The notes under the pieces were generated by a model, which was not told where the DNA came from, did no database searches, and saw only the letters and a list, made by a program, of their open reading frames with translations. From NCBI RefSeq assembly GCF_056746865.1, contig NZ_CM163382.1: 64,000 nucleotides of DNA. The stretch is one strand, 5' to 3'. The translations under genes and the position numbers were made by a program. Shown in pieces: positions 30,069-30,135 of this stretch. Within the stretch, counting starts at the first letter, position 1; each line of letters opens with the position of its first letter.

Positions 30069-30084
30069 TCTTCATCACGTCCGT

Positions 30085-30135
30085 TGACAAATTGGCAATA
30101 TGATAACATCCGTTGACAGATTGGCAACGAATGAA
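30085..30135. promoter_or_regulatory. putative higBA operator: tandem repeats ccgttgacaaattggcaa / ccgttgacagattggcaa
   Basis: Two 18-bp near-identical repeats containing TTGACA and the partial palindrome TTGaCA..tgGCAA directly upstream of the higB start. Confidence 0.5.

Follow-up and report, generated by a model that had tools for sequence, protein, structure and literature searches.

The described system closest to the one analysed here is the higBA (ygjNM) operon of Escherichia coli K-12. Christensen-Dalsgaard et al. (PMC2814082) report that a single higBA transcription start was mapped by primer extension, that a PhigBA-lacZ fusion (primer ygjN-124-cw) shows activity when higBA is absent, that HigA alone represses it, and that higBA induction requires Lon; the inverted repeats in their promoter figure are labelled as putative protein-binding sites. 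According to reviews citing Jadhav et al. 2020 (PMC8138530; PMC10135005), HigA and HigBA have similar nanomolar affinity for the operator. One of these reviews (PMC10135005) classes E. coli higBA as a single-operator system that takes one antitoxin dimer, whereas Gerdes and co-workers (PMC11980606) write, in the plural, of promoter 'palindromic sequences' bound by HigA and HigBA. The exact operator sequences given below had no match in the text of the papers searched.

Several other antitoxins have been described as controlling their own promoters in a comparable way. The sehAB operon of Salmonella Typhimurium, at a different locus, is a HigBA homologue, and its antitoxin SehB is 46% identical to HigA. 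Like HigA, SehB has a C-terminal helix-turn-helix (HTH) and binds and represses its own promoter (PMC7160566; the original 2013 description of sehAB, PMC3868539, is flagged as retracted). The sehAB promoter is reported to have two palindromes, located over its putative -35 and -10 boxes (PMC7160566); we set these beside higBA by description. Like the higBA pair, O1 and O2 of hig on Proteus vulgaris Rts1 are two dyad operators that overlap promoter elements; each takes one HigA dimer, which binds with two HTH motifs and blocks RNA polymerase (PMC12266136). However, Rts1 HigA belongs to a different structural class, in which the HTH is N-terminal (PMC6987408), whereas that of E. coli HigA is C-terminal, and O2 of Rts1 overlaps the -10, whereas the proximal dyad of E. 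coli overlaps the predicted start site. A search for a relative of the HigA studied here in the class of Rts1 HigA and Pseudomonas aeruginosa HigA (PaHigA) found none at E <= 0.001 among PDB chains; only HigA of E. coli and Shigella matched. Because the HTH lies at opposite ends of the two HigA proteins and there is no detectable sequence relationship between them, the higBA pair is not a member of the Rts1 class, although it works like P. vulgaris hig O1/O2. P. aeruginosa HigA and P. putida GraA also autorepress through palindromic promoter sites and two antitoxin dimers, but they have an N-terminal HTH and the half-site TTAAC (PMC6987408). There, the two dimers sit on opposite faces of the DNA and surround a single compact region of 28 bp, whereas the E. 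coli dyads lie 29 bp apart.

The window (the whole stretch of 64,000 nucleotides that was analysed) contains the same locus as K-12, fadH-higA-higB-rlmG, with both dyads and the -10 alike. The window is E. coli chromosomal DNA, and over 29300-30360 its identity is 100% to strain 118UI and 97.5% to K-12. Along the window, fadH (27278-29296, plus strand) is followed by three genes on the minus strand, namely higA, the antitoxin and repressor gene (29341-29757, 138 aa, C-terminal HTH_3), higB, the toxin gene (29754-30068, 104 aa, PF09907), and rlmG (from 30353). The higB product matches the Pfam family HigB_toxin at E = 3.6e-22, and, among PDB chains, the higA product aligns along its entire length with the crystallised HigA of E. 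coli (5IFG chain B, E = 6e-86).

The earlier note had described two near-identical tandem repeats, each with a partial palindrome, directly upstream of higB, and this is confirmed. Because higB and higA are both on the minus strand, and higB starts at 30068, positions 30069-30135 lie immediately 5' of higB. Repeat 1 (CCGTTGACAAATTGGCAA, 30081-30098, plus strand) and repeat 2 (CCGTTGACAGATTGGCAA, 30110-30127, plus strand) are identical at 17 of 18 bases and start 29 bp apart; similarity extends beyond these 18 bp to 25 nt at 88% (30074-30098 against 30103-30127). They form the sole pair of 18-mers in the 64-kb window with at most one mismatch at a spacing of 18-60 nt, and such a pair arose in none of 200 first-order Markov shuffles. 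The degenerate motif TTGMCWNNNWGKCAA occurs without mismatch in the window only at the two repeats; a further HigA-like site was sought there, and the lone candidate, at 43099 with one mismatch, was rejected as within chance.

On the higB strand, the core of each repeat is an imperfect 6-3-6 dyad, TTGCCA-N3-TGKCAA, with five of the six arm positions complementary. The putative distal operator core lies at 30113-30127 (minus strand, TTGCCA-ATC-TGTCAA) and forms, with its G/C flanks, a 17-bp dyad at 30112-30128, while the putative proximal operator core lies at 30084-30098 (minus strand, TTGCCA-ATT-TGTCAA). The functional unit is the 15-17 bp dyad, and the direct orientation of the two copies is incidental. 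Position 12 of the distal dyad is T in the window strain (TGTCAA) and G in K-12 (TGGCAA); the K-12 dyad, TTGCCA-ATC-TGGCAA, is a perfect palindrome, whereas that of the window strain pairs at five of six arm positions. One more substitution, just upstream of the distal site, distinguishes the two strains.

A consensus promoter scan of this intergenic region gave one promoter-like arrangement, which is on the minus strand and has 10 of 12 matches. Its -35-like hexamer, TTGCCA (30122-30127, minus strand), agrees with TTGACA at five of six positions and lies inside the distal operator. The extended -10, TGtTATCAT (30100-30108, minus strand), made up of the hexamer TATCAT (30105-30100) and the TG at 30108-30107, lies between the two operators. 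The spacer from -35 to -10 is 16 nt, within the 16-18 nt of a sigma-70 promoter, so that the hexamers and their spacing both agree with such a promoter by consensus match only. The predicted transcription start zone, 5-8 nt downstream of the -10, is 30092-30096 (minus strand), and the higBA start would lie near 30093, with the proximal dyad over it. As this dyad starts one base past the -10, it would cover about -5 to +10 relative to the predicted start. The TTGACA that the earlier note had regarded as a -35-like element in each repeat is indeed there, but on the plus strand, antisense to higB. A -35 role for both repeats is not borne out, since the higB strand has TTGCCA in both repeats, and of these hexamers just the distal one stands at the position of a -35. 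A sigma-54 site (TGGCAC-N5-TTGC) was also considered by eye and rejected, as there is no TTGC at the right distance.

We consider it very probable that the two repeats are a HigA operator pair within a single sigma-70 higBA promoter, by which HigA represses its own operon. The dyads lie in the promoter of an operon coding for HigB (PF09907) and then HigA (HTH_3), they overlap the core promoter, and they are inherited together with the regulator. Autoregulation by HigA through the repeats, as had been proposed, is supported by this promoter overlap, by co-conservation with higBA, and by the published repression and binding by HigA. With a half-site TTG[C/A]CA and an unconserved 3-bp centre, each 15-17 bp dyad would take one HigA dimer via two C-terminal HTH domains. 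HigA at the distal site would hide the -35 and HigA at the proximal site would cover the start site just past the extended -10, so that RNA polymerase would be excluded and higBA auto-repressed. Under stress, degradation of HigA by Lon would leave both sites empty, and transcription would go up. One dimer per dyad, the occupancy of both sites, any cooperativity and the exact start are predictions of this scheme. The anatomy, the conservation and the co-inheritance with higBA are observed here, while HigA repression, Lon dependence and the binding of HigA and HigBA to palindromic promoter DNA are taken from the literature; as that binding is published in general terms only, these exact bases are putative HigA contacts.

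The dyads were followed in homologous loci chosen in two ways. The first set consists of 10 loci from about eight genera, with HigA identities of 55-94%, which were not selected for dyads. It includes syntenic loci (rlmG-higBA-fadH) in E. albertii, Citrobacter and Scandinavium, and four non-syntenic loci, all in unrelated contexts, in Buttiauxella, Phytobacter, Cedecea and [Enterobacter] lignolyticus. Nearly all 10 loci have two TTG[AC]C[AT]-N3-[AT]G[GT]CAA dyads around a -10-like hexamer, at about -60 and about -30 from the start codon. The operator pair travels with higBA between genera, and the flanking DNA is not conserved. In an alignment of these related sequences, with one sequence per lineage, column identity was 0.85 in the half-sites, against 0.60 in other upstream positions and 0.63 in the central N3 (Mann-Whitney p = 2e-6). 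Conserved arms with a free centre would be expected of an operator for a dimeric HTH protein. The HTH region of HigA is almost invariant across the homologues (EIGSKSMVSRVL..G.R.L...H...L...F..SP..F), and the N-terminal half of the protein (toxin-binding, dimerisation) is divergent.

The second set came from a blind scan for the pattern GTTGMCWNNNWGKCAA-N11-17-TTGMCWNNNWGKCAA in one genome per species, over 100,044 species. It found 82 stretches, of which 80 were examined, against about one expected by chance for uniform composition (4^-17 x 2^-8 x 7 gap lengths x 2 strands x 2.98e11 bases). HigB/HigA homologues were present in 42 of the 80 loci (tblastn, with the window's HigB and HigA as queries). 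HigB identity to that of the window ranges from 33 to 100% among the 42 and is only 33-47% in marine Gammaproteobacteria (Granulosicoccus, Neptuniibacter, Amphritea, Alteromonas and Halieaceae). The gene always has the same orientation in these loci; between the start of the proximal dyad and the higB start codon there are 18-36 nt, and the two dyads are spaced 26-31 bp apart (mode 28). Relative to the start codon, the distal site is at -52 to -64 in 41 of the 42 species (outlier -46) and the proximal site at -25 to -36 in 41 of the 42 (outlier -18). The hexamer between the sites in homologous loci is TATCAT, TATGAT or TATAGT. Among the 42 species, most have TTGAC(A/T) as the coding-strand reading of the distal site, and the earlier note's proposal of a TTGACA -35 is thus right for relatives, not for E. 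coli. Dyad position 12 (the region of 30121), at which the window strain and K-12 differ, is divided equally between G and T (21 species each) among these 42 higBA species, and HigA probably tolerates the difference. Three further scan matches end at the boundary of the locus (L046, L049 and L088). A Pseudomonas khazarica contig of 474 bp with coverage 0.7 (L036) has the sequence of E. coli K-12 higB and its promoter at 100% identity and is most likely E. coli contamination of the assembly.

It is conceivable, though we think it unlikely, that the dyads are not independent sites and form a pair of fixed geometry, in several species as exact mirror images around the -10, which a higher-order assembly of HigA or of HigB-HigA would recognise. 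Repression would then be cooperative or sensitive to the toxin:antitoxin ratio, and this would contradict the current account, in which E. coli higBA has a single operator and is insensitive to the toxin.

The main rival to an operator pair is a single functional HigA operator in one of the dyads, with the other a duplicated relic or no more than a -35, a reading to which we give a small chance. It would fit the proximal site of Scandinavium, which is degraded by a 1-nt insertion. The DNA on which binding was measured, according to the abstract of Jadhav 2020, is said to be of 33 bp, which counts for this reading as it is long enough for one dyad only, and the review that places E. coli higBA in the single-operator class, with its one antitoxin dimer, points the same way. 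However, both dyads are kept in most of the 10 loci that were not selected for dyads, and both are at fixed positions in 42 of 42 higBA loci of the scan, which carry both by construction, the pattern having required both and its fixed positions being invariant likewise. In several species (L027, L061, L062, L015, L021 and L071), moreover, the two dyads are exact reverse complements of each other and form a super-palindrome of about 45 bp with the -10 at its centre, whereas the E. coli copies are in direct orientation. The plural used by Gerdes and co-workers for the palindromic sequences also argues against a single working dyad.

A far smaller chance remains that some regulator besides HigA binds the repeats, such as a TetR-family protein with TTGACA-N3-TGTCAA as its recognition site. 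The double-dyad pattern is not exclusive to HigA, because loci of a TetR-family divergon share it; in a second class of scan matches, comprising 23 alphaproteobacterial loci, the same double dyad stands beside a TetR_N regulator gene, which rules out the pattern as HigA-specific. These TetR loci, however, are separate from the higBA class of the scan, and no TetR_N gene is adjacent to, and no TetR gene is near, 30069-30135 in E. coli. Furthermore, the site stays with higBA where the module lies in unrelated parts of the chromosome, and in vivo HigA is sufficient to repress the promoter fragment (PMC2814082).

The alphaproteobacterial pair has a form of its own, which is always 42 nt long: GTTGACAyGGTGTCAA-N11-TTGACAyCATGTCAA (L019, L020, L023, L050, L057 and 18 others). 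On one side of it is a TetR-family regulator gene (PF00440); on the other, 15 of the 23 loci have a divergent gene for an NAD(P)H-binding protein (PF13460). This pair is probably the TetR regulator's own double operator, unrelated to HigA. About a dozen scan matches were assigned to neither the HigA nor the TetR class.

Just as remote is the notion that the repeats are mere duplicated promoter hexamers (tandem or divergent) or 5' leader RNA structure, with no repressor role: although each repeat has hexamers resembling a -35 on both strands, the single promoter-like arrangement is on the minus strand and the consensus scan found no plus-strand promoter from the TTGACA hexamers across the repeats, folding of the 5' leader is no better than that of shuffles (z = 0.39), and the conserved feature is dyad symmetry with a variable 3-bp centre, which a lone -35 hexamer would not require.

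Taken as a HigA operator pair within the higBA promoter, the feature is real, ordinary and already known. The sites explain why higBA is off until HigA is degraded, which is already the textbook view of the operon, and significance beyond annotation is little. What is added here is the strand and the role of each hexamer, together with a natural G/T polymorphism at a position that takes either base. In addition, this class of HigA comes with the same two-operator layout across Gammaproteobacteria, which speaks for a role of both sites rather than one.

Several variants of gene content at higBA loci were seen alongside. In Enterobacter soli (locus L009, about 1040-1200), higB is cut to an in-frame remnant of 35 codons while both operators and higA are intact, which is another case of a toxin lost and an antitoxin and repressor kept. 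At locus L006 (1201-1617), a HigA homologue with 63% identity lies among small unannotated genes, downstream of a 244-aa protein that has no Pfam match and is not HigB; this protein may be a different toxin partner. Within E. coli, higBA is a presence/absence polymorphism, with the 67-bp promoter present in 2826 of 5426 complete genomes. In other E. coli strains (locus L012), a deletion takes the promoter, both operators and the start of higB (about 78 codons), so that higA is left as an orphan, and in some strains without higBA (locus L013), fadH directly adjoins the REP/rlmG region. In the window, REP-like palindromic elements lie at 30240-30345, between the higBA promoter and the rlmG stop, and include a perfect 15-nt inverted repeat (30307-30321 / 30324-30338); pieces of 30240-30345 occur in a median of two places per E. 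coli genome, and in up to seven.
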